A DNA stretch of 64,000 bases from a phage, in the sequence record PQ400055.1; one strand, given 5' to 3'. Positions 5,097 through 55,172 of the stretch are shown here, piece by piece. Numbering within the stretch: position 1 is the stretch's first letter; each line of letters starts with the position of its first letter. The translations under genes and the position numbers were made by a program. The notes under the pieces were generated by a model. It had not been told where the DNA came from. It made no database searches and saw only the letters and a program-made list of their open reading frames with translations.

Positions 5097-5104
5097 TATA
5101 AATA
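5097..5104 (+). promoter_or_regulatory. T4-type late promoter (TATAAATA) upstream of gene 36
   Basis: Exact tataaata ~35 nt upstream of the gene 36 ATG. Confidence 0.6.
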
Positions 5105-9909: not shown

Positions 9910-9942
9910 GAGTACACTGTCATAGTTATCTTAGGGCATTAT

Positions 9943-10599
9943 ATGCAAGTTTCTGAAAAAGGGAAAGACTTTGCTATCTCAAATGTCCTGCGCGCTATTT
10001 TCACAACTAAAAGCACGGAGTTGCTCGTACTTCGTGTTTTTGCTGCCGTCGTGTTGTCCATATTAGCATTTGTCGTTTATAGTAAAAACGAGTTATTTGC
10101 GCTTTATAAAGAGACTCGTTATGAGACTTATGCTCACATTCTCCAGGTAGAGAAAGACCGCAATTTTGATAATGCAGCACAGGAGCAGTTACAGATAGTT
10201 CATGTGTCGGCTGATGCCGATTTTTCTGCTGTTTTTAGTTTTCGTCCGAAAAACCTAAACTATTTTGTTGATTTGGTGGCATATGAAGGAAAGCTACCGC
10301 ATACAATCGATGAAAAAAATTTAGGCGGATTCCCTATCAATAAAACGAGTGAAGAATATCGTAGGCATCTTTTAGGTAAATCATATTTTACCGATAAAGA
10401 TTTCCAGTATATTCCATCAAGAGAAAAGAAATTAGAGAATATCGATATAGGTTTCATGTATTCTTGTCCTATATTCAATCTCGATAATGTCTATTCTGGT
10501 AGTATCGCCATTTCATGGAAGAATAAACCGGATATTGACATTGAGAATTTAGATACTCTTTGCAATCAATCTGCCAGAATCCTCGGAAGGATTAGATAA
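9943..10599 (+). CDS. t: holin
   Basis: 218 aa, same length as T4 holin t; motifs YKETRYETYAHILQVEKDR, QLQIVHVSADADFSAVFSFRPKNLNYFVDLVAYEGKLP and MYSCPIFNLDNVYSG match T4 t. Confidence 0.92.
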   Translation: MQVSEKGKDFAISNVLRAIFTTKSTELLVLRVFAAVVLSILAFVVYSKNELFALYKETRYETYAHILQVEKDRNFDNAAQEQLQIVHVSADADFSAVFSFRPKNLNYFVDLVAYEGKLPHTIDEKNLGGFPINKTSEEYRRHLLGKSYFTDKDFQYIPSREKKLENIDIGFMYSCPIFNLDNVYSGSIAISWKNKPDIDIENLDTLCNQSARILGRIR

Positions 10600-10604
10600 C
10601 TTAA

Positions 10605-10638
10605 AGGGGAAGCCTTTCGGCCTCCCCTTCTTTTTTAT
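10605..10638 (+). terminator. terminator after holin t, at the convergence with minus-strand genes
   Basis: aggggaagcc-tttc-ggcctcccct followed by tcttttttatt. Confidence 0.75.
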
Positions 10639-10883
10639 TGGCGCATAGAAGCCCCTGAATCACATTTTGACGCTGTATGATGAAAACAGGTAGCGTACCA
10701 GTCATCGGCTTGTTTGTCTTCGTCAGAAAACGCGTAATTGCGTTGTATGCCGTTTTCTACTTTGACCAGTGCAATAGCTGTTTCTGGAAGATCAATCAAT
10801 CGGACAAAATCGCCATCTTCCCATTCTACACGAGCAATATCATAACCCATCTCAAAATAAACAATCGCTTGTTCTAATTTCAT
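10635..10883 (-). CDS. hypothetical protein
   Basis: 82 aa ORF convergent with t; no recognisable similarity. Confidence 0.45.
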   Translation of the reverse strand: MKLEQAIVYFEMGYDIARVEWEDGDFVRLIDLPETAIALVKVENGIQRNYAFSDEDKQADDWYATCFHHTASKCDSGASMRQ

Positions 10884-17917: not shown

Positions 17918-18920
17918 TTAGTAATGGCTAAAACCTTCGGTTACATCTTCAACCACATAGTAACGATGACAGCGCATTTTGGCATTCGCATAATCTTTCG
18001 GGATACTTACAACGTGACGCGGATCAACTTTACATTTAATGATTCGGCCTCGTCCACCGCCATAGTGCGGAATATAGTGTTTAGCTGCAACGTGGAGGCC
18101 ATTAGAGCAAGTGCGATCATCATCTGGGTCCACGTCTTTACGCTTCATTTTAACCGTGCGACCTGGGCTATTATCAAACGTATGCGTAAAGAAATCTTTA
18201 TAATCAACATCAACACGTTTCCATGCATAGAAACAACCATCTTCCACGATCTCAATGTCGTTGTGCTCTAAGAAGTCAAATAGACGATCTACGGCCTTAC
18301 GGCTAGGGTTTTTCTTGCACTTCTCAAAGAAGTTAAGATAGTGCGTATATGGCTTATTCTCTTTAATCGACTCCACAACTCGACGAGTCAGATTATTATC
18401 AAGAACAATATTATGATAATACACAATACCATTTTCGATACGGAAAGCGCCGTGATAATATACTTCAACCGCTTTCTTAATGTCAATCAGCGTAATAGCT
18501 TTGATGAAATCATTATGTTTAATCGCTTCCAGTGCTTCCTTAAAGTTAACATGTGATGGATCAGCAGTATAAACAATGTCACCACATGTAATAGTAATAA
18601 ACTTAGTTGAGGCTATGGCTACGATTTTTGAGGAAGTAGTTACGGGCTTTTTTTGCGCGTTCACCGCCTTTTCCTTTACTGGTTTTACGGCGTGCTTTAC
18701 GTTTTTCTAGTGCCTTGCGACCTTCCGCTACTGCGTCTTTCTGAATCAGTAATACACGGGAGGCAGTGCGACGAGATACACCAAATGCTGCCGCAAGTGC
18801 TTCGCGGGTAGTAAACTTACCTTCGCCCCACTGTTTAGCCAGTTTGATTTGTTTCGCAGAATCCAGACATTGAACGTTACGGTCAGAGACGGTGATTTTT
18901 GCTTTAGTCATAGTATTCAT
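17918..18920 (-). pseudogene. rIIB: rIIB split across two frames at an A7 run (frameshift mutation, homopolymer sequencing error, or recoding)
   Basis: N-terminal ORF 18603..18920 has the rIIB-like HTH (REALAAAFGVSRRTASRVL vs T4 QELADWQGVSVDTIRRVL); C-terminal ORF 17918..18664 matches T4 rIIB (RLFDFL..DIEI.EDG.FYAWK, FDN.PG..VKMKR.DVDPDD, DYA.AKMR); removing one A at 18648-18654 joins them as ...ERAKKPVTTSS..., ~333 aa. Confidence 0.8.
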
Positions 18921-18973
18921 TCCTCTATTAGTTGGGCGACTATTGCCGCCCGATTCACATCATTATACCAGAA

Positions 18974-19105
18974 TTATTTTGCTTCGACAACCTTGCGGAT
19001 TGTGCGGTCTGATACATTATAGATTCGTGCCAGTTCGCCTTTAGTCAAACCGCGAGCGTATTGTTTACGGATGGTTTCTTTCTGGATGGCGGTCAGTTTA
19101 GTCAT
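18974..19105 (-). CDS. small HTH protein resembling the rIIB N-terminus (not in ORF track)
   Basis: 43 aa, MTKLTAIQKETIRKQYARGLTKGELARIYNVSDRTIRKVVEAK; RBS aagaggtg; resembles T4 rIIB LTKNEQAEIVKLYSSGNYTQQELADWQGVSVDTIRRVL. Confidence 0.45.
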   Translation of the reverse strand: MTKLTAIQKETIRKQYARGLTKGELARIYNVSDRTIRKVVEAK

Positions 19106-25694: not shown

Positions 25695-27086
25695 TCAAAT
25701 ATAGTCTACTCGATACCTCGCACGGGTAACACCAACATATAATAACTGCATTGCCAATTCAAAGTCAACATTGTCTGTACACATGCAAGGAGTATACAGG
25801 AACACGCGGTCTACGCTGATCCCTTGTGACTTATGAATGGTGCAAGCTGGTAATGCTTTTACATTCAAGAACATACGCTTCATCGTCCAGAATGAATCCC
25901 AATCTGGTTTAAATTTTGGATTCTCTTTCTTCATTTCGCGATATTGTCCGGCAACCGTATTCAGATAGATAGAGAAAATGTTCTTCTGACGTTGTTCTGT
26001 CAGAATGTTGATTTCTACCAAATCCGGTTTATCTGTAGTGATTCCGACTGTATCTAAACCGACTTTCTGATTTAGGATTTCTTTGTCTTCGTCATCATCG
26101 ACGCTTTCCACTTTCAGAGTATAGCCTAAAACTGGTTGCGGATCTACCCCCGTGCAACGTAATGTAAATTCGCGCGGTATAACCTCTTTAACTCGGATCA
26201 TCTCACCATTGTTAAAAATAACATTGGGGATCTTCTTCCCGCGTTCATCTCGCAGATATTCGATCAATGGTTCCTGAGTAACCAGAATTTCATCTACAAT
26301 CACTGGTTCATCGGTGTTATAAACGCGCTTACGCACAATTTCATTGAGTTTTTCGACGCTCTTGTTAGTGTAGGCCAGAATACGGTTTTCTAGAAGGTCT
26401 TCCGGCGTTTTAACGGTTTCGAAATAATGCTTCATAAACTCCGGCAGAGTTGAGCTATGGAATACACCCTCGTTGCCGCACTGCTTTTCGAATACCCATT
26501 TACCATTACGGACAGCGGTCGCCACATCAATTATTGGCGCATTAGATCGTTTAATCTCTGTAAGTTCTACATTCTGAAACCTTTCATCGGTGAAGAAAGG
26601 AGAGATCGACGTTGCACCGCTCGGATCAACTGGTCGTAACTGGTACAGATCACCCACGGCAATAATAACAATTCGACCGTTGATACTCTTCATGAGAATA
26701 TCAAATAGTTTCTTATCGACCATACTCGCTTCATCAACAATGATGATCTGAACATCATCTAGCTTAGGAGTATCTTTTTGCTCAAATACTTGAGTATCTT
26801 CATAGTTGGTCGGGTTTAGTCGCAGTAGTGCATGTAAAGTAAATGCTTGACGACCTACCGCTTTACTCAAAACTTTTTTAGCCTGGTGGGTAGGCGTTGC
26901 CAAAACCACACCAGTTACACCACGGCGGACCATTTCCTGAACAATGAATTTCATCATTGCGGTTTTACCAGTACCCGCCGCACCACGGACAGTTGTATGC
27001 TTCTTTTGTTCAATACGTTTCATTAGAACATCAAAAGCATGTTTTTGCCCGTCTGTTAACATATCGAAAGTTAATACTCTGCTCAT
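25695..27086 (-). CDS. dda: Dda DNA helicase (SF1)
   Basis: N-terminus LTFDMLTDGQKHAFDVLMKRIEQKKHTTVRGAAGTGKTAMMKFIV matches T4 Dda MTFDDLTEGQKNAFNIVMKAIKEKKHHVTINGPAGTGKTTLTKFII; 463 aa. Confidence 0.9.
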   Translation of the reverse strand: MSRVLTFDMLTDGQKHAFDVLMKRIEQKKHTTVRGAAGTGKTAMMKFIVQEMVRRGVTGVVLATPTHQAKKVLSKAVGRQAFTLHALLRLNPTNYEDTQVFEQKDTPKLDDVQIIIVDEASMVDKKLFDILMKSINGRIVIIAVGDLYQLRPVDPSGATSISPFFTDERFQNVELTEIKRSNAPIIDVATAVRNGKWVFEKQCGNEGVFHSSTLPEFMKHYFETVKTPEDLLENRILAYTNKSVEKLNEIVRKRVYNTDEPVIVDEILVTQEPLIEYLRDERGKKIPNVIFNNGEMIRVKEVIPREFTLRCTGVDPQPVLGYTLKVESVDDDEDKEILNQKVGLDTVGITTDKPDLVEINILTEQRQKNIFSIYLNTVAGQYREMKKENPKFKPDWDSFWTMKRMFLNVKALPACTIHKSQGISVDRVFLYTPCMCTDNVDFELAMQLLYVGVTRARYRVDYI

Positions 27087-28781: not shown

Positions 28782-28789
28782 ACTAATTT

Positions 28790-29314
28790 TTAGTAGCCGC
28801 GTTCTTGACGGGCGAAGTTTTCAGCATTTTTCAGATAGTACAGAATAAAGAGTTCTTGAGCGTCAATACCCAGCGGGATCATCTTTGACAGAATGAAGTG
28901 GATCGCGTCCACAAATTCAAATTTCACTTCAAGCTGATCTTCCGGTGACAGTTCAGAGAATTTACGCGCTCGCGCTTCTCCGTGGTTCTTTTTCCACATT
29001 TTCCAGATTGCACTTGCATCTTTACCATTGGACATTCCACCCAGCGATGTGTAAAGCTCTCGTGTTTCGTCTGCGATAGCGTCATCCATCCGTTGCATCC
29101 AATCCAGCATTTCACCGCAAGTCTCTAGCTTAGTTGGATTTGGGACCCAATCAAATTTTTCGGATAATGCAACCTGCAAACCAGTTTGCATTTCGAGCAT
29201 CACCTGAAACGGATCTTTACCTTCTGCAATAGCGTGATGATATGCGGCGATAGCCGCGTTAATATCTTTTTCGTTAACCAGACCAGCACAAGAATTAAAT
29301 TCTGACATATTCAC
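28790..29314 (-). CDS. 56: dCTP pyrophosphatase (gp56, MazG-like)
   Basis: 174 aa (T4 171 aa); C-terminus ...YYLKNAENFARQERGY and EFVDAIHFIL as remembered for T4 gp56; position before gene 61. Confidence 0.75.
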   Translation of the reverse strand: MNMSEFNSCAGLVNEKDINAAIAAYHHAIAEGKDPFQVMLEMQTGLQVALSEKFDWVPNPTKLETCGEMLDWMQRMDDAIADETRELYTSLGGMSNGKDASAIWKMWKKNHGEARARKFSELSPEDQLEVKFEFVDAIHFILSKMIPLGIDAQELFILYYLKNAENFARQERGY

Positions 29315-29322
29315 CTCATTAA

Positions 29323-30351
29323 TTAAAATTTACAATATTTCATAAACCGCATTTTAGCCATCAGACCTTGTACGGTGTTCTCTTTGATGTATTCCATGAT
29401 CTGGTCGCGTGTAGCGCCCTCGTCCTGAATCATGGCGTTAACGTCTTTAGAATGCCACGGGCAGCGATCCCACAAAACAATCTTTTCCCCTGCATTGATA
29501 AACTTTTCCAGTCGGTGCATTGTATCGGCAGACCGTGGTTCCGCATCAAGTACAAACACTCGCTGGTCTGGGAAAGGGATTTCATCTAATCCCAACGTAC
29601 CGCCAGTAATTGCACACCCGTTATCAATAAACAATGAATCGATCGGACCTTCTAAGAAATACACTGGTTTACTCGGATCGGCGCGTTCAAGACCATAGAC
29701 CTTACTCGCTAACTCGTGAGTTTTAATCGTCATATATTTGGTCTTTCCGTAATCCTTTCTCAATGCTCGCCCCTGAACGGATTCTATCTTGTTCTCGCGG
29801 TTAAAGATAGGAATAACTAAACGCGGTTCAGGTTGTGGATTCTTGAAAGTATCAGCCTTAATGTGATTTGCTACCTTTTGCCATTCTCTCGTGAAATACA
29901 GAAGATCCCATTTATCGTGGGGAATGCAACGATCACTGACATACTTTATTATAGGATGATTAGCCGGAAGAGTATCTAATCTCTCGCAGAAAGGCAATGT
30001 TTGCACTTTCTTAATCTCCGGCTTTTCTACCTTTTTCAGTGGCTTGAACGTGGTGTTCTTGTGGTCGCCTTGTTCCTTCCGTCGTTCCATAAGCCATTCC
30101 CTGAATAGGTCCGGCTTATACTGTTTGAGAAATTCACCTAACGGCTGATTGTAGTTACAGTTGAAACAGCCGCAACGCAAACTATCTTTATAGGTATAGA
30201 TACGGAATCGCGCTTGAGTATGATTTTTCTTTGAGTCACCGCAGATCGGACAACTACAGACCAGCGTAAATGAGCTAGTATGCAACCGTTTAAAATTTCG
30301 TTCGCCGTATATGGCTTTTTCCGCTATTTCATAATCTGCGTAGTAAATCAT
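29323..30351 (-). CDS. 61: DNA primase (gp61)
   Basis: 342 aa, same as T4 gp61; N-terminal zinc finger CSCPICGDS...CGCFNC and TOPRIM-like core. Confidence 0.85.
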   Translation of the reverse strand: MIYYADYEIAEKAIYGERNFKRLHTSSFTLVCSCPICGDSKKNHTQARFRIYTYKDSLRCGCFNCNYNQPLGEFLKQYKPDLFREWLMERRKEQGDHKNTTFKPLKKVEKPEIKKVQTLPFCERLDTLPANHPIIKYVSDRCIPHDKWDLLYFTREWQKVANHIKADTFKNPQPEPRLVIPIFNRENKIESVQGRALRKDYGKTKYMTIKTHELASKVYGLERADPSKPVYFLEGPIDSLFIDNGCAITGGTLGLDEIPFPDQRVFVLDAEPRSADTMHRLEKFINAGEKIVLWDRCPWHSKDVNAMIQDEGATRDQIMEYIKENTVQGLMAKMRFMKYCKF

Positions 30352-31978: not shown

Positions 31979-33391
31979 TTAGAAAGTCATGTTATTTGCT
32001 AGCTCGTCGAGTTTTTCTCGTTTCTCGGCTTGCTGTGCGCTTTGTGGTTTAACTTGTGCATTCTCCTGATCTGCGATCTGGTTTGGGACTTCATACCAAC
32101 GCTGATTGCCTTTTTTCACACCAACGTTAAACCGTGAATAATAGTTCTTATCACCGTAACGAGACTTGATCTGCTTCATGAGTTGGACGCCCATTTTAGC
32201 CAGGTCTTCGGTTTCGATAACACCCAACATAAAGTCGGCAGTAGCCGGAAGACCTGCTGATTCAGCGGTATCACTCATGTTAAGGTCGGAAGCATCCCAA
32301 CCAGCACGGGTAGTTTGTGCCGCAGTCCAACCAACAACATCCCACTTAACAAAAAATCCGCGAAGTTCTTCCGCAATCGCTTTAACGAGAGTGTAGCTAT
32401 TCTCAGAGTATACACGCAAGCGAGACGATGCGCAAATCCCCAGATAGTCAACAATCACAACATCAGGTTTAAACTGTTTCTTGAGTCGCAATTCATTCAT
32501 TAACGCCTCAAAGTGATTGGAGTTCGCGCCACCAGTCGGATACTGCTTGATCATCAATTTTCCAACCGGACGATCTCCGATCTTCTTATTCTTAACACGC
32601 TTCATACGTGCGGAATATTCCGCAAAAGAAACATTACCATTATCCAATTCATCTAATGTAATGTCAAGCAAGTTTGCGTCGATACGTTTGGCTACGACAT
32701 GCTCTGCCATCTCCATTGAGATATACAATACATCATAACCACATTCCATATAATCCGCAGCAAGAGAACATAATCCAAGCGATTTACCAACATTTACACC
32801 AGCAAGCAACACATTTAGCGTTTTTCTTTCCGCACCTCCTTTCGTGATTTTATTCAACATCGGCAGCTTAAACGGGATCTTATTCGCCTTAGTCTGATAT
32901 AGCAAGAATCGTTTTTCAAAGTCATTAAACCAGTCATGACCTACATCAGAATCAAACGTAATGGATAGTGCTTCCTGCATGATCTCAGGAATAGCACCCT
33001 CACTCGGCAATTTCTTATTCTGTTTCTCTTTTGGTAGTTGTGCGTTCGCCTGAATCTCTAGCGCCCGTGACATTGCATTATACATGGCACGGTCACGAAT
33101 AAATTTTTCGGTTTCCTTCATTAACCAATCAAGGTCTTCCGGTGTATTCTCAAGCGAATCAAGAAGAGTTTTAGCCCCTTCATATGTTGTCTGATTGCCT
33201 CTCTCCTTGTCTAAAGCAATCTGTAATGCAGTTGGCGTAGGAATGTTGGAATATTCGTCTACGTGCTTTTTAATCAGCTTATAAATCAGTTTTTCTTCGT
33301 CTTCGGTGAAGTAGTCCGCTTTAAGGTGAGGCCATACATTCGTAAAGAATGCGCCATTGTAAATCAACTGTGAAAAGATAGTTTTAATCAT
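31979..33391 (-). CDS. 41: replicative DNA helicase (gp41, DnaB-like)
   Basis: 470 aa (T4 475 aa); Walker A GVNVGKS and DnaB-like C-terminal RecA fold; adjacent to gp61. Confidence 0.88.
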   Translation of the reverse strand: MIKTIFSQLIYNGAFFTNVWPHLKADYFTEDEEKLIYKLIKKHVDEYSNIPTPTALQIALDKERGNQTTYEGAKTLLDSLENTPEDLDWLMKETEKFIRDRAMYNAMSRALEIQANAQLPKEKQNKKLPSEGAIPEIMQEALSITFDSDVGHDWFNDFEKRFLLYQTKANKIPFKLPMLNKITKGGAERKTLNVLLAGVNVGKSLGLCSLAADYMECGYDVLYISMEMAEHVVAKRIDANLLDITLDELDNGNVSFAEYSARMKRVKNKKIGDRPVGKLMIKQYPTGGANSNHFEALMNELRLKKQFKPDVVIVDYLGICASSRLRVYSENSYTLVKAIAEELRGFFVKWDVVGWTAAQTTRAGWDASDLNMSDTAESAGLPATADFMLGVIETEDLAKMGVQLMKQIKSRYGDKNYYSRFNVGVKKGNQRWYEVPNQIADQENAQVKPQSAQQAEKREKLDELANNMTF

Positions 33392-35092: not shown

Positions 35093-37771
35093 TTAAATGT
35101 CAAACAGGTCAGTCAGAGAAGCAACTTTCTCATATTGCAGCTTTGCAGCCGTGGTAATGTTCTCCAGTGGTTTGACGAAAGTCTTATTAAACAACAAAGG
35201 CCAGTCTAACCACTTTAACACCTCTGATTCAATTTCTGGAGGAATACGAGTACCGGACAACCAACCAAAACAGATTTCTCCAAACGGATTTCGATCTTTC
35301 AGCGGTACAATCATAACCTTCTCGCCCTCACGAATTGGATCTAGTCCGAATTTTCGAGCATTACGATTATAACACAATACACTCTTAACCGCATACGGAC
35401 AACCCTTAATCGGATACCCGTTTGAATCGCTGTATTTCTGTAGGTTGTTTGCAGATGATACCGCAGCAACCTCAAGATAATCAAGTTTTCTAAATTCTTG
35501 CTCAAAAATACCGTAGTATTCCTGCAATGACTCTTCACCTTCCTGCAACATACGGCGAATACATTCTTTCAGTGATTTCTGACATGCTTTAGGGGTGGAG
35601 CTACGTTGCGTTTCCAAGCCCATGATTTTTAGCTTAGGTTCAGCAAAGCGCGTTCCTTCCATATCCCAAACATTAAGAGCATAACGCTTTTTGCCAGTCC
35701 AGAATCCACCGATACCCGCAGATTTCAACGGAGGACCAGCAATTGCCTCACGGTCCATAAACATCAAGTGCTCATAGTTGTTCATGTACTCGCATAACTC
35801 GCGATATCCCTTGTCGATAATAGGTTCCATTCGATGTTTACCGAAATTATCAAGGAAGTCAACAAGTTTTTCGGTATCGTCGAAACGGTCTTCCCCGCCA
35901 ACCTTATCAACAACATTGTTAACCAGCACATAAACGGAGTCAGTATCACAATAACGAACATATGCAAAATCGGTTGTTCCGCAAAGCTCGTTTAAGTATT
36001 CGTTAATCTTACGCTCAATCCACTGAATTGCAAGCTGACCAAACAAGGTGATCGCACTAGCGTTACGGAGATCATAAAAACGGAATTTAGGATTCCCCAA
36101 CGCACCATAAAGGGAGTTGATCAAAACTTTTCGAGAAAGCTGGTTTGTATTGCACAAGATCGACTCGTCTTTACATTCTTCCAGCAATTTCTCTAAGGCA
36201 TCTTTACTTAATTCAGAAAGCATCGATTTAAACGCTTCATCAAAGTCGTGACGTACTTCAACGCTATAGCTAATGGTTCCCCCATAAACATGATTTTCAT
36301 CGTGTAGAATCGCTTTACAGAGTTCAGCATTGCGATCACATGCCAACATCATGTTTTTGTACTGCTTACGCTGATCGAATACCTTTTTAATCTCAATCGG
36401 TACGATACCGTGAATATCTTTTCTATACATCCATCCGTTAGGAGAGCAAGAATACTCATCACTCGGACGTGGTGCAGTTTTATTGATATACTCGTGCATC
36501 GGTGCAGCATCAAAAGATCCGGCGATTGTTTCCGGCGAAATGTTAACCTGTCGAATAATAGATGGGTACAGACTTGTTAAGTCAAAGCTCATCATCCAAC
36601 GGTAAGCATTCGGCACAGGTTCTTTTACGAATGCGCCTGGATACGTCTGCTTAGGCTGTATCTTATTTTCCGGTACTACTTTACCCTCAGCTTTCAGAGA
36701 TCCGAAGATAATAGCATCCCATACTTTCATCGGGTTATAAACATGGTTAAATTTAATCTTTGCATAGAAACATAGACTATACACAAGATCGATAAATCCA
36801 CGCTTTTTATCAATCGCCAGCACACGATCAACGTCGCCGATGTTATAATCGATGTAAAGTTGATGGTTGTCATCACGCAATTTCTTTAACGGACCATCAT
36901 AATCAACCTTACCGATTCCTGTCTCATATTCAGCAACATAATCTAACGCATATGTTGGTTGAGTCGTAAAGCTAAATTTCTTGTACAGGTCAATATAATC
37001 AAGGCTTTCGATCCCCATGATCGTAAATGCTTCACGCTCGTTGCCAAAATCATCCTGTGAGATTCGGGATTTAATCTTACCGCACGGGCTTAGACGGTTA
37101 GCGGTTCTACTTCCGAACTTATTACTGATACGTTTAATGATATATGGAATATCGAATGTTTCTGTGTTCCAGCCAGTGAAACCAACGGGTCGGTTTTCCT
37201 CAAAGAATCGGATGTATTCTAACAGCAATTCATCTTCTGTGTCATAGACGTTATAAACAACGCGCTCTACAATATCAGGTCGAAGAATAGACTTGCTTGC
37301 TTCCCAGATTTCACCGTTTTTTCCCTTCAAATCAAATACAAAGAAACGATCATGTACTGAATCATAATGCGTAATTGCATCGATAGGATATTTCGCTTCT
37401 TCTGGTTTAGGAAATTCTGGGGCAGTGACCTCGATATCAACCCATGCTACACGGATTTTATTTCGGTCATATCGAATCTCTCCTTTATACGTATCAGACA
37501 GATAGGAGATGATAAAATCATCCATCCCTAGCGCCTCTTGCCCCATTTCTCCCATCTTTTTACGCCATTTGTTGGCCTCGTTCATAGAGGGGAATTTTTT
37601 AGCAATGCAAGGCTTGCCATAGATATCTTTATAATTCGTAACCATACCAGGCGCGGCATGATGAAATAAAGTTGGCGTATATTCAACGTAACGCTCTTGT
37701 TCTTGTCCAGCATCATCAATATAACGCTCGTAGATCTTATCACCTACTCGCTCACATGACAGAAAATACAT
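35093..37771 (-). CDS. 43: DNA polymerase (gp43, family B)
   Basis: N-terminus ...VGDKIYERYIDDAGQEQERYVEYTPTLFHH...KDIYGKPCIAKKFPSMNEANKW matches T4 gp43; ATG at 37771 has RBS ggag and a promoter cassette upstream (track start 37801 lies inside it). Confidence 0.92.
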   Translation of the reverse strand: MYFLSCERVGDKIYERYIDDAGQEQERYVEYTPTLFHHAAPGMVTNYKDIYGKPCIAKKFPSMNEANKWRKKMGEMGQEALGMDDFIISYLSDTYKGEIRYDRNKIRVAWVDIEVTAPEFPKPEEAKYPIDAITHYDSVHDRFFVFDLKGKNGEIWEASKSILRPDIVERVVYNVYDTEDELLLEYIRFFEENRPVGFTGWNTETFDIPYIIKRISNKFGSRTANRLSPCGKIKSRISQDDFGNEREAFTIMGIESLDYIDLYKKFSFTTQPTYALDYVAEYETGIGKVDYDGPLKKLRDDNHQLYIDYNIGDVDRVLAIDKKRGFIDLVYSLCFYAKIKFNHVYNPMKVWDAIIFGSLKAEGKVVPENKIQPKQTYPGAFVKEPVPNAYRWMMSFDLTSLYPSIIRQVNISPETIAGSFDAAPMHEYINKTAPRPSDEYSCSPNGWMYRKDIHGIVPIEIKKVFDQRKQYKNMMLACDRNAELCKAILHDENHVYGGTISYSVEVRHDFDEAFKSMLSELSKDALEKLLEECKDESILCNTNQLSRKVLINSLYGALGNPKFRFYDLRNASAITLFGQLAIQWIERKINEYLNELCGTTDFAYVRYCDTDSVYVLVNNVVDKVGGEDRFDDTEKLVDFLDNFGKHRMEPIIDKGYRELCEYMNNYEHLMFMDREAIAGPPLKSAGIGGFWTGKKRYALNVWDMEGTRFAEPKLKIMGLETQRSSTPKACQKSLKECIRRMLQEGEESLQEYYGIFEQEFRKLDYLEVAAVSSANNLQKYSDSNGYPIKGCPYAVKSVLCYNRNARKFGLDPIREGEKVMIVPLKDRNPFGEICFGWLSGTRIPPEIESEVLKWLDWPLLFNKTFVKPLENITTAAKLQYEKVASLTDLFDI

Positions 37772-37803
37772 AATATAAACTCCTTCACTTACGAAAGACA
37801 CTC

Positions 37804-46055: not shown

Positions 46056-46289
46056 TTATTTTACCTCTGGGATATAATCAATTATTAAAGAAAATTCATC
46101 TTCTGATACATTATAGCTATGTGAGATTGTACCCGTAAAGACCTCAAGATCCGGTGATTTGATATTGCACGGATCGATAATCACCGGAACGCCGCAATCT
46201 CTCAAAAATAATTTGGCGAAATACGGCACAAGGTCAGTTTCAAACTCTGCTTCTTCCAGCAAACGGGAAATGTTAATTTTCAATCTCAT
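46056..46289 (-). CDS. hypothetical protein
   Basis: 77 aa ORF. Confidence 0.4.
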
Positions 46290-46806
46290 AAAATTGGTCC
46301 AAGCTAGGCAATTCCTCGGTCAATACATCTTCAACCTTTGGCGCTTTCGGTTTATTGACCGATTCCTCGTAGTTGTTGATTTTATCGTAAATGTCCTGTA
46401 TGAATGCCTCATCAGCAATCTGGCACATATCAGCGTCGCGTTCGTCATATACATGATGCACAAAATATTTGTATTTTGCGGCTGTCGCTGTTCTCTCTTT
46501 TTTAATGCGCTGTACAAAAGCATTAAAGCACGCTTGCGTGATGTAAGCATGAGGATTTTTATACTTTGTCTCGTCAAAATTAATCAAACCCTTGACCGCC
46601 GCTTCGATTCCGTCGTCGATCATTTCTTCGCGCCACGTTTGACTATAACCAGAAAAGTTAAAACGACGTGATAGATTTTTAGAGATTTGCATAATTGCTA
46701 GGCCGATTTGATCGCTCATTGGAACTTGCCGACCTTCTGCTGCAATTTGTTGTTTCCAACGGCAAATTTCTTCGTAAAGCTCTTTATTGTTTACATAATC
46801 AGACAC
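46273..46806 (-). CDS. 55: late-transcription sigma factor gp55
   Basis: YVNNKEL...[58 protein letters not shown] nearly identical to T4 gp55; GTG start with RBS gaggg. Confidence 0.95.
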
Positions 46807-46846: not shown

Positions 46847-48316
46847 CTATTCCCCATTACCATTATACTTTCTTTGCTTAGTTATCCACACTCTAACCAT
46901 CTCTACAGATTCGCCGTCAGACGGATCAAGAGTTTTTCCTTTTTTCTTCATGCGGTACTTAAATCCGTTAAATCTTGCATTCTCTTGCTCGTTAAAGTCG
47001 AACATCTTTTTAAATGATTTTCGCCCTTTACGTTCACCACATTCTAGCGGAATCATTCGATCTGTTATTACATTGGCATTAGGCAGAAACGTTTTTAGAT
47101 AATCCACCAACGCCCAATCAGGAACATATAGATTAACATTCTCCTTGCTCTCGTTGTCTCTCAGGTTACAACGCAAACATAATTGAAATGCTGGTTCCAG
47201 ATAATCAGACACATGACGCGCTTTCAAAAACTCGTTTGTCGGGAGATCACAACTATTAGCAAGACCTTTTAAAATATCAATCTCCCATCGTTGAGGGTTA
47301 AAGCTGAACATCACAGCAACATTTTTATGATGAATGTAAGAGTTAAGACCATAAGACCCGTAAGGTATCCGCTCACCAATACCATTTGTACACGCTTCAC
47401 GGTCCCGATTCACGGTATAAATGAAGTCATCGCCACATTCATTTTTAACCATATCAACAAGACGTTCAAAGGTATTGTTTGTTTCTGACTGGTGACGCGA
47501 CCATCGTTCAGAGTCCGTCATAAGGATGATATTAACTCTATCTGTATTTTTATACTCTTTGAAATATAGTCTGGATTCTAGCGCACTCGGAACAAAATCG
47601 CAATTTGCATAGTATCGTAGATACTTCCCACTATATGTATCAAAGAGATTTGCACATGCTATCGTAACCTTTTTAAAGTCTCCCCACGTACCGTGTTTGT
47701 TATCGTTCAAGAAAACAATTTTCGACCCATTCTTCCGGTGTCCTTCGTTATGTTTTACCATAACGTTGATTTTCTTCTCTAATAACGCCTCATAAAGCCC
47801 TCTAAGAGAAGAATCGATCATATCAGTACCATCCTTCGCACTTTCTATCTTTTCTTTGATAGCGGCCTTCTCAGAGTCTTTTAGAACTAAGTTCTGTAGG
47901 CATTCCGATTCGTCGGCGATTGGTTCGCAATGCTTCGTGATAAGTTCAAGATTAGACTTAAACGGATACTCATTAAATTCAACCAGTTGAGGAACTTCAT
48001 CAATGTAAAGAGCATAATCACCAAACATTTTTGAACGTTCCATATTAGATAACGCTGTATGTGTAATGAATATCACATCAGCACCATCTTTAACTGATTG
48101 CATTATCGACGCTTGCACTGTCTTAAGGCTTCTTAGTCTTGTGCTATCAATCAAGACAGCACGACCGCCCATTCTTTTAAACTTATTGTAAGATTGTTCA
48201 CTTAAAACACGAGATGGCGAAGCAATAACCGCTTTTTCTTTTGTCTCTAGGACGTGGGAAAGTATAGCATCAGTTTTCCCCGCCGCTGGCAATGCGATTA
48301 ATGTTTCAATCTTCAT
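46847..48316 (-). CDS. P-loop NTPase, possible helicase-like N-domain, function unknown
   Basis: 489 aa; Walker A-like LPAAGKTDA and DEAD-like YIDEVP; C-terminal ~300 aa without recognisable motifs. Confidence 0.55.
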   Translation of the reverse strand: MKIETLIALPAAGKTDAILSHVLETKEKAVIASPSRVLSEQSYNKFKRMGGRAVLIDSTRLRSLKTVQASIMQSVKDGADVIFITHTALSNMERSKMFGDYALYIDEVPQLVEFNEYPFKSNLELITKHCEPIADESECLQNLVLKDSEKAAIKEKIESAKDGTDMIDSSLRGLYEALLEKKINVMVKHNEGHRKNGSKIVFLNDNKHGTWGDFKKVTIACANLFDTYSGKYLRYYANCDFVPSALESRLYFKEYKNTDRVNIILMTDSERWSRHQSETNNTFERLVDMVKNECGDDFIYTVNRDREACTNGIGERIPYGSYGLNSYIHHKNVAVMFSFNPQRWEIDILKGLANSCDLPTNEFLKARHVSDYLEPAFQLCLRCNLRDNESKENVNLYVPDWALVDYLKTFLPNANVITDRMIPLECGERKGRKSFKKMFDFNEQENARFNGFKYRMKKKGKTLDPSDGESVEMVRVWITKQRKYNGNGE

Positions 48317-48621
48317 TAGAAACCCTTACGTCGTGCTTTCTGGCATTTCTTGATCATTTTATCAGAAATTTCGCGCTTAGGTGCAATCTCTTTCACACCG
48401 AAAGCACTAATGCCAAATTCAGAGAGAATATATTCAACAAACAATTCACGCACACGCGCTTTACCGATATTCACGCCGTTATTTTTCAGATATGTCTGGC
48501 CTTCGACTTGCATCAGATCTAAATCTGCGTCGGTAATATTGATTTCTTCCATGCGCCCAAATCGAGAATAAACCATGTGTGCGATTGCATTGTGTACTAA
48601 CATAATATATTCCTCACTCAA
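48316..48621 (-). CDS. hypothetical protein
   Basis: 101 aa ORF. Confidence 0.5.
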   Translation of the reverse strand: MSEEYIMLVHNAIAHMVYSRFGRMEEINITDADLDLMQVEGQTYLKNNGVNIGKARVRELFVEYILSEFGISAFGVKEIAPKREISDKMIKKCQKARRKGF

Positions 48622-48624: not shown

Positions 48625-48783
48625 TTACTTAATGATACTTACTTTACCAGATCCATGACAATGAGCGCAACACCCATCACCACGCAATCCTGTTCCGTTA
48701 CAGTGTTTACACTTCTTCAACGGTAAAGCCATTATAGCAAATAAAGCAATAATGAATACCGAAACTAAATTCTCAATAATCAT
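48625..48783 (-). CDS. small membrane-anchored zinc-finger peptide with two CxxCxGxG motifs (not in ORF track)
   Basis: 52 aa by manual translation: MIIENLVSVFIIALFAIMALPLKKCKHCNGTGLRGDGCCAHCHGSGKVSIIK; RBS gaggg 7 nt upstream. Confidence 0.5.
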   Translation of the reverse strand: MIIENLVSVFIIALFAIMALPLKKCKHCNGTGLRGDGCCAHCHGSGKVSIIK

Positions 48784-49042
48784 AAATCGCCCTCAGTTCT
48801 TTATAGCCTCCAATGTGCTCGTTGTCAATGAATATCTGGGGGTATACAAACCGGAGGCTCTTTGAGTTTAGCCTCCCCGCCAGTTCTTCAATCATATCAC
48901 GGTCGGGAATAATGTCAACCCCGACCTGCTTGAATACTGGTTTAAGTGTATACGGAATACCCAGATCATCCAGTAGCTTCATTGCACTAATACAACCATA
49001 ACAATGATAAGCCTCTTTCGGTATACCGTATATCTCGATCAT
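48773..49042 (-). CDS. glutaredoxin/thioredoxin-fold protein (NrdH-like)
   Basis: 89 aa; CxxC active site YHCYGCIS near the N-terminus. Confidence 0.65.
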   Translation of the reverse strand: MIEIYGIPKEAYHCYGCISAMKLLDDLGIPYTLKPVFKQVGVDIIPDRDMIEELAGRLNSKSLRFVYPQIFIDNEHIGGYKELRAIYDY

Positions 49043-49560
49043 TTCTCAGCCTTTAATCTTTCTAGTTCTTCTTCCAGTTCCTTGATCCGTTGGTCACGTT
49101 CAAAGTCACGCTGTAGCTTAGTGGCAAATACTCGCTTAAACTGATTGTAATCATCGATTTTAAACACTTCTTCTTCGCCATAGCGACGTACAGAAACTTC
49201 GTAGTTGTTGAAAAATTGTTCCAACATTGCATCAGTAGTCAGTTCTGACGACACCACTTTAAAATAACGTTCTTCTGATTGCAAAAACCAGTTGTGCGCG
49301 TATTCCCGTACATCATCAACATCTCGACAGGTGTATGTTTTTCCATCAATTTCAATCGCAGAAACATATTCGATATCTGACGCAATTTTTTCAAAAGCGA
49401 TAACTTTAAATGTACGGTCACCGATAAAGTCTGCTATTGCATCATTTGCAACACTGGTTGCAAATGCTTTCCGCGCTCGCTCGTTTTTCCACTGATAGGT
49501 CATACCAACAACAAACATATTACCATCAACAAACATATTACCAACCTCGCTCTTTACCAA
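49039..49560 (-). CDS. paralogous-family protein, member 1 (one repeat unit plus coiled-coil tail)
   Basis: 173 aa; motifs GMTYQWKN...FKV...IEIDGKTYT...WF..ERYFKVV; C-terminal RIKELEEELERLKAEK. Confidence 0.55.
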   Translation of the reverse strand: MVKSEVGNMFVDGNMFVVGMTYQWKNERARKAFATSVANDAIADFIGDRTFKVIAFEKIASDIEYVSAIEIDGKTYTCRDVDDVREYAHNWFLQSEERYFKVVSSELTTDAMLEQFFNNYEVSVRRYGEEEVFKIDDYNQFKRVFATKLQRDFERDQRIKELEEELERLKAEK

Positions 49561-50362
49561 TCAAAAATTCAACTTCACGACGTTTAATGTCTTCTTGAAG
49601 GTCTTTAATCTTCTGGCGATCTTGCATGATTTCATCCATCTTGTCAAGTGCCGCAATGAAATCATCGAAACGTTCAAAGGTTTTACCTTCATTTGCTTCG
49701 CCAAATTTAACCATTGTCAGGCCGTAACGACTACTAAACAGACGTTTCAACTGTCCAACGATCTTAGAATCAGTGGTTATAACTTCCAATTCTTCTACTT
49801 CACGAAAGAATTTTCTATCAGAATCAATAAACCAGCTAGTTCCTTTATGGTCTCTATCTTCGGTTGCGCTCATTAGAGTATGGTCTTTACCATCAATTTC
49901 AATTACATCAATTTGCCCACATGGACTAACATTTTTAACAGTAAAAGGTCTATAATTTATTGCTCGTGCAATAACATAATTAAGGTTAGATACGTTTTCA
50001 GCATAATGGCAGAAGTCGGTCATAGCATTCGCATCTTTCCAAGTATAAGTTTTACCAACTTCCCATTTCTGGGGAACTTCTTCAACTTCACGAAAGAATT
50101 TTCTATCGAATGGACTAAAGAAATATGTGGCAGTCCAAATGTCTTTTCCTGTAGCAGTTTTCGCCGTATGATAAACACCGTCTAGCTCTATTGCATCAAT
50201 CCAACCGTTACCATCGATCTCGATGATGGTAAATGGCTTGTCACCAATAGCTGCACTAATATCGCTGTTAAGTGGAGAAAGAACACCTTCTCCGTTAGTA
50301 ATAAACTCAGTTTTAGCGTTTTCATCTTTCCAGGTGTAGGTTTTACCAATTTCCCATTTCAT
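49538..50362 (-). CDS. paralogous-family protein, member 2 (two tandem repeat units plus coiled-coil tail)
   Basis: 274 aa; WEIGKTYTWKDENA...PFT..IEIDG...RKFFREVEE twice, then a coiled coil. Confidence 0.55.
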   Translation of the reverse strand: MKWEIGKTYTWKDENAKTEFITNGEGVLSPLNSDISAAIGDKPFTIIEIDGNGWIDAIELDGVYHTAKTATGKDIWTATYFFSPFDRKFFREVEEVPQKWEVGKTYTWKDANAMTDFCHYAENVSNLNYVIARAINYRPFTVKNVSPCGQIDVIEIDGKDHTLMSATEDRDHKGTSWFIDSDRKFFREVEELEVITTDSKIVGQLKRLFSSRYGLTMVKFGEANEGKTFERFDDFIAALDKMDEIMQDRQKIKDLQEDIKRREVEFLIGKERGW

Positions 50363-50374
50363 AATATATTCCCC

Positions 50375-50875
50375 TTAACCGATTTTATCAAGTTCGTTTA
50401 ATGCTTTCTCTGCTTCCTGTATAGCTTGCACTCTTTCCGGCATTTTGTCAAGAAAATCTTTCAACTCTTCAAAACTGGAGATATGACGCAAGGCATTAGC
50501 ACCGATAGCCGCATGTGATTTGCATTCAAAGCGAATTTTATAATTATCCATCGCCAATTTGAGAAGGTCTATTAGATCATATTCATGACCAGGCAATAAA
50601 ACTTCTTTGAAGCACGCTCGGTCGCCATCGGAAAACCATATATTATCACCAACATCGATAGAACTAATATAATCCCCTTCGTGATTATAGATTGAACGTA
50701 CATTACCCCAACGGTCTACCGTAGCGACAGTAAATGGTTTATCTAGATATGTAAACACACCATCAATATTAGGTTTTTGTTCGTAACGCCAACAATCACG
50801 CAAAATGCGCTTTTCGTCCTCACCAACCAACTTATATGTCTTCCCTTCTTCCCATTTCATAATATCATCTCTCAT
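50375..50875 (-). CDS. paralogous-family protein, member 3
   Basis: 166 aa; WEEGKTYK...PFTVATVD...WFSDGDRACFKEV plus C-terminal coiled coil. Confidence 0.55.
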   Translation of the reverse strand: MRDDIMKWEEGKTYKLVGEDEKRILRDCWRYEQKPNIDGVFTYLDKPFTVATVDRWGNVRSIYNHEGDYISSIDVGDNIWFSDGDRACFKEVLLPGHEYDLIDLLKLAMDNYKIRFECKSHAAIGANALRHISSFEELKDFLDKMPERVQAIQEAEKALNELDKIG

Positions 50876-51402
50876 TTTTTGATACGTGATTCTAATTGGA
50901 TCATACGGTCGCGCGTTTGCTTGTATTCGCGGATAGCACCGATCCGGCTAGGCATACCATCAAGCACGCTCTTAATCCCTTCTAGGGTAGTGATTTTAGC
51001 AATGCTATTATGTAACCCCATCTTATCGATCAACTGAATGTCGTAGGCTTCCATAAGCAGACCCAGACGTTCTAAAGTTAGGTCTTCTTCTTTTTCTTCC
51101 GATTCTGGAATCTTAGGTTCAATAATAACTTCGGTAAAGAAACGACGCTCACCCGACCAAAACCACACACCGGAACAGCCAATAGGGGATTCTTTTAACG
51201 TCATAGAGTCGAAATCACTACCGATAATAGTAATTTCTCTAACATCACCATCATCGTCAATGTCTTCTACCCTAAACGGGCGACCAGCCAACAAGTCAAC
51301 AATACATCTGTTAATAGACGACGAAAATTTAGTCAGTTCGGCTTTCGACGCTTCGCATTCAATCTTGTAAGTTTTACCAACTTCCCATTCCATAATAATC
51401 AC
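50872..51402 (-). CDS. paralogous-family protein, member 4
   Basis: 176 aa; WEVGKTYK...PFRVEDID...WFWSGERRFFTEV plus C-terminal coiled coil. Confidence 0.55.
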   Translation of the reverse strand: MIIMEWEVGKTYKIECEASKAELTKFSSSINRCIVDLLAGRPFRVEDIDDDGDVREITIIGSDFDSMTLKESPIGCSGVWFWSGERRFFTEVIIEPKIPESEEKEEDLTLERLGLLMEAYDIQLIDKMGLHNSIAKITTLEGIKSVLDGMPSRIGAIREYKQTRDRMIQLESRIKK

Positions 51403-53309: not shown

Positions 53310-55172
53310 TTACATGTGCTTAACGCGGTTTACCATCTCGGAGTGTTTCCCGTGGTTGAATGGACGCAGATCAACAGATCCAAGATATCCACTAACGCGA
53401 CGGATAACATTCATCTTTTCCAGATTGTCATTACCGCAATCAGGACAAACAAAACCAGACTCGGTCGCTCTCATTTCCTTAGTAGATCCGCATACATGAC
53501 ATACATCAGAAGGAGTATTAACACCGAAGTAGTGCAATTTATCCATTGCATAGTCTACTACAGTTTCAAGACCTTTCAGGTTGTTTTTCATGTCTGGGAA
53601 CTCAACATAAGAGATCATGCCACCGGACGCCAGCCAGTGATAATCTTTCTCAAAGTCAATTTTCTCAAATGGAGTGACTTTCCGGTCTACGTCAAGGTGG
53701 AATGAGTTGGTGTACCAGTCTTTATCGGTAGCACCCTTAACAATACCAAATTGCTCTCGGTCCAGTCGATTAAATCGATAGCAAAGGCTCTCGGCTGGAG
53801 TACCGTAAAGACTAAACCCAAGTCCGGTTTCGTCCTTCCATTTTTCAGTATAATGACGCAAGATCTTAAGAATATGTTTACCGTATCGCTGCGCATCTTC
53901 CGAATCAAACGGATGAACACCAAACAGGACGCTCAATACCTCATGTAAACCAATATATCCAAGAGAGATACTAGCGCGACCATCTTTCAACACTTCCAAA
54001 ATTTCATCGTTTTGATGAATACGGAAAAACGCACCTTCGGTATACAGCACCGGAGCAACATTGGCTTTAGCCCCTTTTAAAGCGTCTACGCGACTCATGA
54101 GCGCATCAAAGCAAATAGGCATACGATTGGCTAGCTCTTGTTCGAATAGCTCAATTCTGCGCATTACAGACGCTTTACCAGCACGACGCGCGGCAATAAG
54201 GGCAATACGCGGAAGATTCAGGGTCACAACACCCAAGTTATTACGTCCGTCTAATACTTCTTCTCCTTTCTCATTATGCCACACACCCAGGAAGCTACGA
54301 CAACCCATCGGGCTAACCGGAACACTAGATCCGGTGATACTACGGTTATTCTTCGCAGAGATATAATCAGGGTAAAGACGCTTACTAGAACATTCCAATG
54401 CAAGTTGCTTAATGTCGTAGTTCGGATCTTCCGGTTTAAGGTTTAATCCTTCTTCTAAGAACATCACCAGCTTAGGAAACACCGGAGTGATACCATCTTT
54501 ACCTAAACCTTTAGTTCGAACGTTCAGGATCGCTTTCTGAATCAGTTTTTCTTCCCAGCTAGTACCCATACCAAAGGTTAAAGTCACAAAAGGCGTTTGA
54601 CCGTTGGTGGAGAACAAAGTGTTGATTTCATATTCCAACGCCTGATATCCGTCTAACGTTTCTTTTTCTGTTTTCTCTTGTGCATAGAGAGTATCAGCTT
54701 TGATTCCGTAGGTTTCGGCATCAGCAAGGTGTTTATAATATGTTTTCTCAACATACGGTGCTAACACCTGATCGATGTTTGCGATTGTGGTCCCGCCATA
54801 TTGATGACTTGCCACCTGTGCGATAATTTGAGCGGTTACAGCACAAGCAACGCCGATTGATTTCGGACTTTCGATTTGTGCGCTACCCAATTTAAAACCA
54901 TTCTCTAACATGTCTTTGAGATTAACAAGACAGCAGTTAGTAAACGGCATAGCGGGTGCATAATCCATATCATGATAATGAATGTCACCGTCTACATGCG
55001 CTTTATAGATGTGCTCAGGTAACACGGTTTTAGCAATCTGTTTAGACACAGCACCAGCAATCAGATCTCGACGTGTCGGGAATGTTCGCGCGTCTTTGTT
55101 CGCGTTCTCTTTGCTTACTTCGTTTTCTTTACCCGTTGCGATCTCTGTAATGTCTTTGATTAGTTTTTCCAT
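53310..55172 (-). CDS. nrdD: anaerobic ribonucleoside-triphosphate reductase
   Basis: 620 aa; C-terminal zinc ribbon CHVCGS...CPDCG followed by glycyl-radical motif RVSGYLG; uninterrupted ORF. Confidence 0.9.
   Translation of the reverse strand: MEKLIKDITEIATGKENEVSKENANKDARTFPTRRDLIAGAVSKQIAKTVLPEHIYKAHVDGDIHYHDMDYAPAMPFTNCCLVNLKDMLENGFKLGSAQIESPKSIGVACAVTAQIIAQVASHQYGGTTIANIDQVLAPYVEKTYYKHLADAETYGIKADTLYAQEKTEKETLDGYQALEYEINTLFSTNGQTPFVTLTFGMGTSWEEKLIQKAILNVRTKGLGKDGITPVFPKLVMFLEEGLNLKPEDPNYDIKQLALECSSKRLYPDYISAKNNRSITGSSVPVSPMGCRSFLGVWHNEKGEEVLDGRNNLGVVTLNLPRIALIAARRAGKASVMRRIELFEQELANRMPICFDALMSRVDALKGAKANVAPVLYTEGAFFRIHQNDEILEVLKDGRASISLGYIGLHEVLSVLFGVHPFDSEDAQRYGKHILKILRHYTEKWKDETGLGFSLYGTPAESLCYRFNRLDREQFGIVKGATDKDWYTNSFHLDVDRKVTPFEKIDFEKDYHWLASGGMISYVEFPDMKNNLKGLETVVDYAMDKLHYFGVNTPSDVCHVCGSTKEMRATESGFVCPDCGNDNLEKMNVIRRVSGYLGSVDLRPFNHGKHSEMVNRVKHM

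Follow-up and report, generated by a model that had tools for sequence, protein, structure and literature searches.

A predicted stand-alone XPD/DinG-like helicase without an iron-sulfur cluster, encoded next to gene 55 in certain T4-like phages

The 489-aa Gene and Its Distribution among T4-like Phages

Phage sequence record PQ400055.1 provided the stretch of DNA considered here, 64,000 nucleotides (nt) that are referred to as the window throughout this article. The subject is one gene of its minus strand, which adjoins gene 55 and codes for a protein of 489 amino acids (aa). An earlier note, made from the sequence alone, had described this protein as a P-loop ATPase of helicase or translocase type, and the open reading frame (ORF) that it placed at 46847-48316 is present exactly there, on the minus strand and with an ATG start. 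The protein, whose N-terminus reads MKIETLIALPAAGKTDA and which also contains YALYIDEVP, is predicted to belong to the superfamily 2 (SF2) helicases and to be organized as follows.

46847..48316, minus strand: complete coding sequence (CDS) of the predicted 489-aa SF2 helicase; ATG start, stop codon at 46847-46849 (ORF list)
47987..48316, minus strand: RecA-like lobe 1, N-terminal part, aa 1-110, with motifs I, Ia, Ib, and II (Pfam DEAD; alternating strands and helices in the model)
48269..48295, minus strand: motif I (Walker A), ALPAAGKTD, aa 8-16 (alignments)
47990..48010, minus strand: motif II (Walker B), LYIDEVP, aa 103-109 (alignments)
47675..47986, minus strand: predicted inserted domain between motifs II and III, aa 111-214 (model; strands and a helical hairpin)
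47648..47668, minus strand: motif III-like strand VTIACAN, aa 217-223, leading back into lobe 1 (alignments; strand 216-221 in the model)
47057..47605, minus strand: predicted RecA-like lobe 2, aa ~238-420
47336..47362, minus strand: motif V-like YGSYGLNSY, aa 319-327 (alignments)
47159..47188, minus strand: motif VI, FQLCLRCNLR, aa 377-386, candidate arginine fingers (alignments)
46850..47044, minus strand: Lys/Arg-rich helical C-terminal tail, aa 425-489 (alignment A1 and model)

This ORF is a real, conserved gene rather than a spurious reading frame. Its match to phrog_2467 (function unknown) runs from end to end (E 2.9e-175), and tblastn with the 489-aa protein recovered copies in 244 phage records, 238 of which cover at least 80% of its length. 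Full-length T4-like homologs are 35-42% identical to it, and the carriers include Aeromonas phages 44RR, 25, CC2, and Ah1, phages RB16, Lw1, and Miller, phages of Cronobacter and Enterobacter, Proteus phage Pm5461, Morganella phage MP1, Serratia phage Muldoon, and Erwinia phage IT22. JSE encodes a protein 100% identical to the 489-aa helicase, and the flanking 6 kb are 97-98% identical in nucleotides to Krischvirus, i.e., T4-like coliphages of the RB49/Phi1/JSE type (megablast). The gene is annotated “hypothetical protein” in JSE, RB16, 44RR, and all other records inspected; the label “gp55.2” in the record belongs to a small ORF upstream of the 489-aa gene and not to that gene itself. A six-frame translation of the window yields a single match to the profile of the helicase family, namely the 489-aa gene. 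Phage T4 has no copy; between its genes 55 and 55.2 it has just the 87-aa gene 55.1, in agreement with the earlier view that no T4 protein corresponds to the 489-aa protein at this position. Among T4-like phages, the helicase is confined to certain lineages.

A pattern-based search of bacterial genomes for the locus returned two loci, both apparently on T4-like phage contigs within the assemblies. One is a 43-kb contig of a metagenome-assembled genome (MAG) assigned to Bacilli (L011), on which a T4-like copy of the helicase has genes 55 and 47 downstream; the other (L012; Flagellimonas marina NZ_JBHSCL010000010.1, 178,077 bp) has a 55.2-like gene at the same locus coordinates as RB16 (L033). 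Both are probably T4-like phage contigs that entered bacterial assemblies by contamination or co-assembly.

Catalytic Motifs

Conservation was assessed in an alignment of 32 T4-like homologs (A1; lowest identity 32%) and in a second sample of 137 more distant relatives of the family. In motif I, P10, G13, K14, and T15 are invariant in all 32 T4-like homologs, and K14 and G13 persist in 136 and 134 of the 137 distant relatives, respectively. Motif II is equally constrained, with D106, E107, and P109 invariant in the T4-like set (32/32) and both acidic residues present in every distant relative (137/137). Downstream of motif I, T85/H86 (“ITH”) is conserved in alignment A1. The motif III-like element TIAxAN (218-223) has nearly invariant T218 and N223 in T4-like homologs, N223 being kept in 85/137 distant relatives, and the motif V-like G323-L-N325 retains G323 and N325 in all sequences of both samples. 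Motif VI, Q378-x3-R382-x3-R386, likewise has its three residues invariant throughout (32/32 and 137/137), and a Q-x3-R-x-S-x-R form of the motif is invariant in the long-form relatives described below.

Loss of the catalytic Lys or Asp-Glu on alignment had been named by the earlier note as evidence that would tell against its proposal; their invariance instead favors an active ATPase, and a P-loop ATPase of helicase or translocase type is also what the Pfam DEAD family (PF00270) recognizes on aa 11-130, marginally, at 27.3 bits vs. a cutoff of 26. An NCBIfam scan of the protein gave no match. The suggestion that the ATPase core is fused to some 300 aa devoid of recognizable motifs did not hold up, given that the C-terminal part carries the III-like, V-like, and VI helicase motifs. 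By its conserved motifs I and II and its two predicted RecA-like lobes in tandem, the second with an arginine finger in motif VI, the 489-aa protein is assigned to the SF2 helicases.

Predicted Structure and Resemblance to XPD/DinG Helicases

The AlphaFold2 model computed from alignment A1 has a mean predicted local distance difference test (pLDDT) of 88 and a predicted template modeling (pTM) score of 0.76. Lobe 1 comprises aa 1-110 together with aa ~215-237, and lobe 2 aa ~238-420. Between them in the sequence lies the insert of ~105 aa (aa 111-214), which consists of strands and of hairpin helices 147-162 and 166-179. The tail forms helices 443-458 and 468-485 beyond a linker (426-431) of low confidence; its distal part is specific to the T4-like clade, in which E445 and W477 are invariant. 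Judged from this model, the whole protein would be one SF2 helicase, built from a pair of RecA lobes with an inserted domain and a short tail, rather than the core with an unrelated extra part that had been supposed earlier.

A structure-based search, proposed in the earlier note as a check, placed the overall fold closest to the XPD/Rad3/DinG group. This group comprises SF2 DNA helicases of 5′-to-3′ polarity such as Finegoldia magna DinG (9kqh), archaeal XPD (3crv/2vl7), yeast Rad3, and CasDinG, whose structures align with the model over ~90 more residues than plain SF2 cores do. The insert occupies the position of the XPD/DinG Arch domain, between motifs II and III of lobe 1. A second, independent model was obtained for the long-form relative P0043, which is 24% identical to the 489-aa protein (pLDDT 85). 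Its top Foldseek matches are E. coli DinG, XPD, and CasDinG (E 1.6e-9 to 1.7e-6); since P0043 is independently XPD/DinG-like, this architecture would be a property of the family as a whole.

The XPD/DinG architecture also bears on the nature of the substrate. The Pfam match might suggest a DEAD-box-type enzyme that acts on RNA, as helicase or chaperone, to remodel transcripts of the phage or the host, but that match is limited to the generic motifs I-II besides being marginal, the full-length structural matches are DNA helicases, DEAD-box proteins are devoid of a large insert between motifs II and III, and the fusion of family members to primase-like modules points to DNA. An RNA helicase is for these reasons very improbable.

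The differences from XPD/DinG enzymes are of size as well. The Arch domain of XPD measures roughly 190 aa, vs. ~105 aa for the insert of the 489-aa protein, and helicases of the XPD/DinG type are 550-740 aa long.

A Widespread Family Associated with a Primase-Like Module

The protein had been suggested to be possibly lineage-specific, which describes its restriction to certain T4-like lineages and fails for the family to which it belongs. An exhaustive profile search, evaluated at thresholds of E up to 1e-3 and E up to 1e-10, found 1331 and 763 cluster representatives, respectively, so that the family has at least 1331 representatives, distributed over phages and bacterial mobile elements and falling into two size classes, ~450-550 aa and ~750-900 aa. 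The nearest relatives outside T4-like phages come from gammaproteobacterial chromosomes, where their sole name is “DEAD/DEAH box helicase family protein,” a chromosomal copy in Bradyrhizobium adjoins an ATP-dependent DNA ligase, and the viral structural neighbors are uncharacterized helicase-like proteins of very diverse phages (Atu_ph07, phiRSL1, Fnu1, Motura, and H101).

Among the best 150 of the 1331 representatives, 63 carry an extra module, which lies on the C-terminal side of the helicase in at least 60 of these 63 and on the N-terminal side in none; fused to the helicase or encoded beside it, the module accompanies ~40% of the members sampled. Profile matches of these long forms end at about position 405-457 of the 489-aa protein, whose tail thus takes the place where the long forms have a basic linker followed by the module. 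Conserved motifs of the module are LVLDF[ED]xG, NTxxH..PRFRV, and SGLDxSK..SLFYLP, with D579 (in LVLDFE) and D661 (in SGLDxSK) invariant, and the P0043 model shows a separate, confidently predicted alpha/beta domain followed by a helical domain. All nine module sequences compared with PHROG matched phrog_9765, a “DNA primase” family (best E 4.8e-10), and five of the nine matched phrog_2135, also a “DNA primase.” Pfam gave merely faint matches to PriCT_1 and RepB_primase_C; the module matched no Pfam family of archaeo-eukaryotic primases (AEPs) and no PDB sequence, and no AEP structure appeared in the whole-model Foldseek list for P0043, a list filled by helicase matches. The module is termed primase-like because the PHROG primase families match it while the Pfam matches are faint and the PDB search is empty; an AEP fold is plausible but unproven for these sequences.

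The genomic contexts are instructive. A 463-aa short form and an 814-aa long form both follow directly after a P4-type integrase gene and an AlpA/HTH_17 gene and precede variable cargo, and in one element the module has a gene of its own (258 aa), immediately downstream of the 463-aa short-form helicase (hhalign probability 100%, E 1e-74). In P4-like integrative elements, the slot after integrase and AlpA is the place of replication primase-helicases.

The integrative elements with the long or split form (metagenome contigs L005/L006, and L009) thus have the layout P4-type integrase, AlpA/HTH_17, helicase (with or without fused primase-like module), and cargo. Their cargo includes genes for Mrr_cat, PLDc_2, a metallophosphatase, and a large phosphatase/ADP-ribosylglycohydrolase protein, and L009 also has DUF927 genes downstream. 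It is possible that these elements are defense islands with an unusual replication module.

A family of this description was noticed previously. Some AEP primases of the All3500 family are fused to domains remotely similar to SF2 helicases, and the families pVOG1685/pVOG9714 were assigned a predicted helicase function (Kazlauskas et al., 2018; PMC5862659). Remote similarity to SF2, members in T4-like phages, and a link to primases of mobile elements are shared with the family described here, which is almost certainly the published one and would correspond to pVOG1685/pVOG9714. Two differences stand out: the published description has the helicase C-terminal to an All3500-type AEP, whereas here the helicase comes first and the primase-like module after it, and no XPD/DinG connection was drawn (PMC5862659). 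Two relatives, P0125 (877 aa) and P0138 (1266 aa), have N-terminal extensions of 370-416 aa. That of P0125 has acidic motifs that look AEP-like by eye (IIVFDFDEDED) and matched neither Pfam nor PHROG; its identity with the common C-terminal primase-like module was rejected (hhalign probability 0.3%), and extensions of this type may correspond to the published All3500-AEP-plus-helicase fusions.

The published resemblance of pVOG9714 to UL9 (PMC5862659) raises the idea of an initiator helicase analogous to the herpesvirus protein, which would recognize an origin through binding of specific phage sequences by the C-terminal tail and open the DNA. The conserved basic helical tail of the T4-like proteins and the presence of long and short forms in the initiator/replication slot of integrative elements, after integrase and AlpA, would fit such a role. 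A relationship to the herpesvirus origin-binding protein was nevertheless rejected, as the protein has no match to Herpes_ori_bp (PF02399) at E up to 10 and no UL9-like protein occurs among its top 50 viral structural neighbors. Moreover, T4-type phages need no dedicated initiator, their replication starting from R-loops and recombination intermediates, and an origin-recognizing function is quite improbable.

A further reading is that of a DNA translocase or clamp that is driven by ATP, does not unwind, and acts on duplex or primer-template DNA, where it would remodel protein-DNA complexes or tether a partner enzyme. Swi2/Snf2 enzymes are reported to act in this manner. The sole AEP/SF2 fusion with published biochemistry, IEE of E. 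coli O157, joins an AEP primase-polymerase to an SF2 helicase domain on the integrative element SpLE1 and was reported to be a DNA-dependent ATPase without unwinding and an end-joining polymerase (PMC9943667). IEE is comparable to the long forms in concept, pairing an SF2 motor with an AEP-type enzyme within an integrative element, but its domain order is opposite to theirs, and it has no homology to the family beyond the SF2 level: hhalign of IEE (E. coli O157 Sakai chromosome) gave probabilities of 2% with the short-form profile and 10% with the long-form profile. As a characterized relative of the 489-aa helicase, IEE was therefore rejected and is retained as an analog only. With IEE not specifically related, with the true unwinding helicases XPD/DinG as clearly the best structural matches, and with no tethered partner in the T4-like proteins, a non-unwinding translocase is unlikely.

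Neighboring Genes and Genomic Context

In the window, the helicase gene lies between gene 55, which the earlier note had correctly placed beside it, and a homolog of T4 gene 55.2, downstream of two sigma-70-like promoter matches.

46273..46806, minus strand: gene 55, late sigma factor (phrog_234, E 4.2e-63), 40 nt past the helicase stop
48316..48621, minus strand: homolog of T4 gp55.2, upstream of the helicase (41% identity in BLASTP vs. T4 gp55.2, E 3e-19; JSE annotation)
48632-48661, minus strand: weaker sigma-70-like match (consensus scan)
48891..48918, minus strand: sigma-70-like promoter match, TTGACA-16-TATGAT with TG (consensus scan), upstream of the run formed by a small ORF, 55.2, and the helicase

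The real start of the gp55.2 homolog is probably the ATG at 48603, which is preceded by GAGGA. Its TAA stop codon overlaps the ATG of the helicase (TAATG), with AAGGG 8 nt upstream, an arrangement that suggests translational coupling of the two genes. T4 gp55.2 is an early-expressed inhibitor of the host topoisomerase I and raises the copy number of plasmids that depend on R-loops for their replication (PMC4396842). Across 31 T4-like loci, gene 55 lies directly downstream of the helicase in 22 and a 55.2-like gene upstream in 24, abutting or overlapping the helicase start in about 16 of them; the RB16-type genomes all belong to these, and their link to gene 55 is broken, the tail-fiber gene 34 following the helicase instead.

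The sigma-70-like matches are weak evidence because they rest on the consensus, for which the scan found 14 sites vs. 9.7 expected. No T4 late promoter TATAAATA occurs near the helicase gene, the sole copy in the window being at 5097 on the other strand, and a CCC-GAAA-GGG hairpin after the helicase stop was rejected as a terminator because it is too weak. The helicase gene belongs to a leftward cluster of early/middle genes, and its neighbors are genes of replication, nucleotide metabolism, and transcription.

Such surroundings matter for the proposal, entertained in the earlier note, of a defense-related enzyme. The protein could be an actor in conflicts, either a counter-defense factor or a weapon against co-infecting elements, and it is kin in fold to the defense helicases CasDinG, Hna, and DdmD. 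However, PADLOC gave no significant match (the sole one, RTasSLATT, is below threshold, with E 0.0089 and 13.6 bits over 60 residues), the 489-aa protein has no nuclease or effector domain, and in integrative elements the family occupies the replication slot and not the cargo. Its position and neighbors are, in addition, stable across genera in which it is only 35% identical, unlike anti-defense loci with their fast turnover. A role in conflict is accordingly a far-fetched prospect.

The window also encodes the following parts of a T4-type replisome.

25695-27086: Dda (AAA_30 and Dda SH3 domain)
29323-30351: gp61 primase (synteny with JSE)
31979-33391: gp41, DnaB-like helicase
35093-37801, minus strand: gp43 DNA polymerase, intact ORF of 902 aa

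As Dda and gp41 are both encoded in the window and in JSE, the 489-aa helicase was rejected as a replacement for either and is additional rather than a substitute.

Several observations concern other genes of the window. Gene 43 of JSE (L007; 17062-20204) is annotated as two CDSs and includes ~470 bp (18538-19010) without counterpart in the window; the JSE polymerase gene seems to be split by an insertion. In the window, nrdD (53310-55172, minus strand) is a single intact ORF of 620 aa with a full-length NRDD Pfam match, while in JSE it is in two pieces around a homing endonuclease gene; a second homing endonuclease gene of JSE (9918-10838) has no match in the window (28782-29286). As both JSE homing endonucleases are unmatched, the phage of the window is without at least two mobile endonuclease insertions of JSE. 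Upstream of the gp55.2 homolog, a 52-aa ORF (48625-48783, minus strand) that matches phrog_3931 (function unknown; E 4e-10) combines a hydrophobic N-terminal segment with two DnaJ-type zinc-finger repeats, CKHCNGTG ... CAHCHGSG (CxxCxGxG twice), and looks like a membrane-anchored mini zinc-finger protein. Further upstream, at 49039-51402 on the minus strand, four tandem paralogous ORFs (49039-49560, 49538-50362, 50375-50875, and 50872-51402) lie between nrdH and nrdG and represent a gene family that has expanded locally. The three that were scanned all match phrog_5347, and the 274-aa ORF contains two copies of the repeat and also matches goF-like “mRNA metabolism modulator” PHROGs.

A Putative Accessory Helicase of Phage DNA

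Taken as a whole, the results favor an accessory, XPD/DinG-shaped SF2 DNA helicase of phage replication, recombination, or repair, a reading to which a probability of about 0.68 is attached. Its components are not equally secure. The reality and conservation of the gene, its intact catalytic motifs, its modeled fold, the context of its family, and the synteny are results of the analysis, and the substrate, the polarity, and the role in the phage are deduced from them. That the protein is an ATP-driven SF2 motor is close to certain, and DNA is very probably its substrate. A role as accessory helicase in replication, recombination, or repair of T4-like phages is slightly favored, and translocation along single strands in the 5′-to-3′ direction, by analogy with XPD/DinG, would be an even bet. 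The protein is predicted to be catalytically competent and is probably monomeric.

ATP would be bound and hydrolyzed at the interface of the two RecA-like lobes, involving K14, D106/E107, and Q378, R382, and R386, and the lobes would ratchet along a nucleic-acid strand. The T4-like helicase stands alone, the short basic tail replacing the primase-like module, and would add to a complete T4-type replisome (Dda, gp41, gp61, and gp43). It may, for example, act ahead of replication forks or behind them to remove or process R-loops, D-loops, or bound proteins, as DinG-type enzymes do. T4 UvsW and Dda are comparable as accessory, non-replicative helicases of the same phage group that act on forks, R-loops, and D-loops, and UvsW is also an SF2 enzyme. 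With regard to origin, the 489-aa helicase is taken to derive from, or to share ancestry with, the helicase half of the helicase plus primase-like replication module of mobile elements.

A number of points weigh against this interpretation. At the sequence level, neither DEAD_2 (PF06733) nor Helicase_C_2 (PF13307) of Pfam matches the 489-aa protein at E up to 10, the PDB sequences yielded nothing specific and no DinG/XPD whether searched with the single sequence (phmmer) or with its profile (hmmsearch), and the long-form profile reaches DinG at only E 0.49. The equivalence of the insert to the Arch domain is drawn from position and aligned length in the model rather than from a residue-level superposition. 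XPD, FancJ, and E. coli DinG have a 4Fe-4S domain with four Cys between motifs Ia and II, which is absent from some DinG and from CasDinG. In the model of the 489-aa protein, motif II follows motif Ia with no insert between them, and there is no conserved Cys quartet; of the 137 distant relatives, just 11 and 4 retain C130 and C380, respectively, the only invariant Cys of the T4-like copies. Because the iron-sulfur (Fe-S) cluster is absent, polarity is not safely transferable from XPD/DinG. An SF2 domain on a primase-polymerase, e.g., that of IEE, can hydrolyze ATP without unwinding (PMC9943667). The link to primases comes from distant relatives, about 24-30% identical, and no primase-like module is found in the window or near the 31 T4-like copies of the helicase. 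As T4 and its nearest relatives thrive without the helicase, it is probably non-essential. Lastly, the literature yielded no experimental work on the 489-aa gene or any family member, and the paper on helicases as retron triggers deals with UvsW and T5 D10 only and not with the 489-aa helicase. The position taken, on the strength of the model, is that the 489-aa protein would function in the manner of an XPD/DinG-type helicase, although membership in that family is not demonstrable.

A more specific and rather doubtful extension of the accessory-helicase reading unites the gp55.2 homolog and the helicase in a two-gene module for topology and R-loops of phage DNA. By inhibiting the host topoisomerase I, gp55.2 would favor R-loop-dependent replication, as in the T4 work, and a DinG-like helicase co-translated from the same message would process or limit R-loops, either turning them into replication starts or clearing them ahead of forks; in T4-like phages with cytosine DNA, the helicase might thereby do part of the job of T4 UvsW. 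The proposal draws on the coupling, the synteny, and the known behavior of DinG-type enzymes and gp55.2, and it is held low because T4 has 55.2 without the helicase. In a broader and equally doubtful form of this extension, the family would constitute a new class of monomeric XPD-like SF2 helicase that serves, in integrative elements, as the replicative helicase partner of a new primase family.

Significance

T4-type replication belongs to the textbooks, and its set of helicases (gp41, Dda, and UvsW) is regarded as complete. Many T4-like genera (Krischvirus, Pseudotevenvirus, and Karamvirus-type phages, and phages of Aeromonas, Proteus, Serratia, and Erwinia) would nonetheless carry a fourth, structurally different helicase. 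On the predicted structure, the 489-aa protein represents an XPD/DinG-like variant that stands alone and is free of Fe-S; the helicase family to which it belongs was predicted in 2018 and never characterized. The name “SF2 DNA helicase, XPD/DinG-like” is defensible for phrog_2467 and several hundred phage proteins. This is a sound improvement in annotation, and the gene makes a reasonable target for experiments, but it is not a surprise of kind. The phage gene is, moreover, linked to a large, uncharacterized helicase-plus-primase-like replication module of P4-like integrative elements. If the family does consist of Fe-S-free 5′-to-3′ helicases paired with a new type of primase, it would represent a new kind of replication module for mobile DNA and offer a compact and tractable model for the mechanics of XPD/DinG enzymes.

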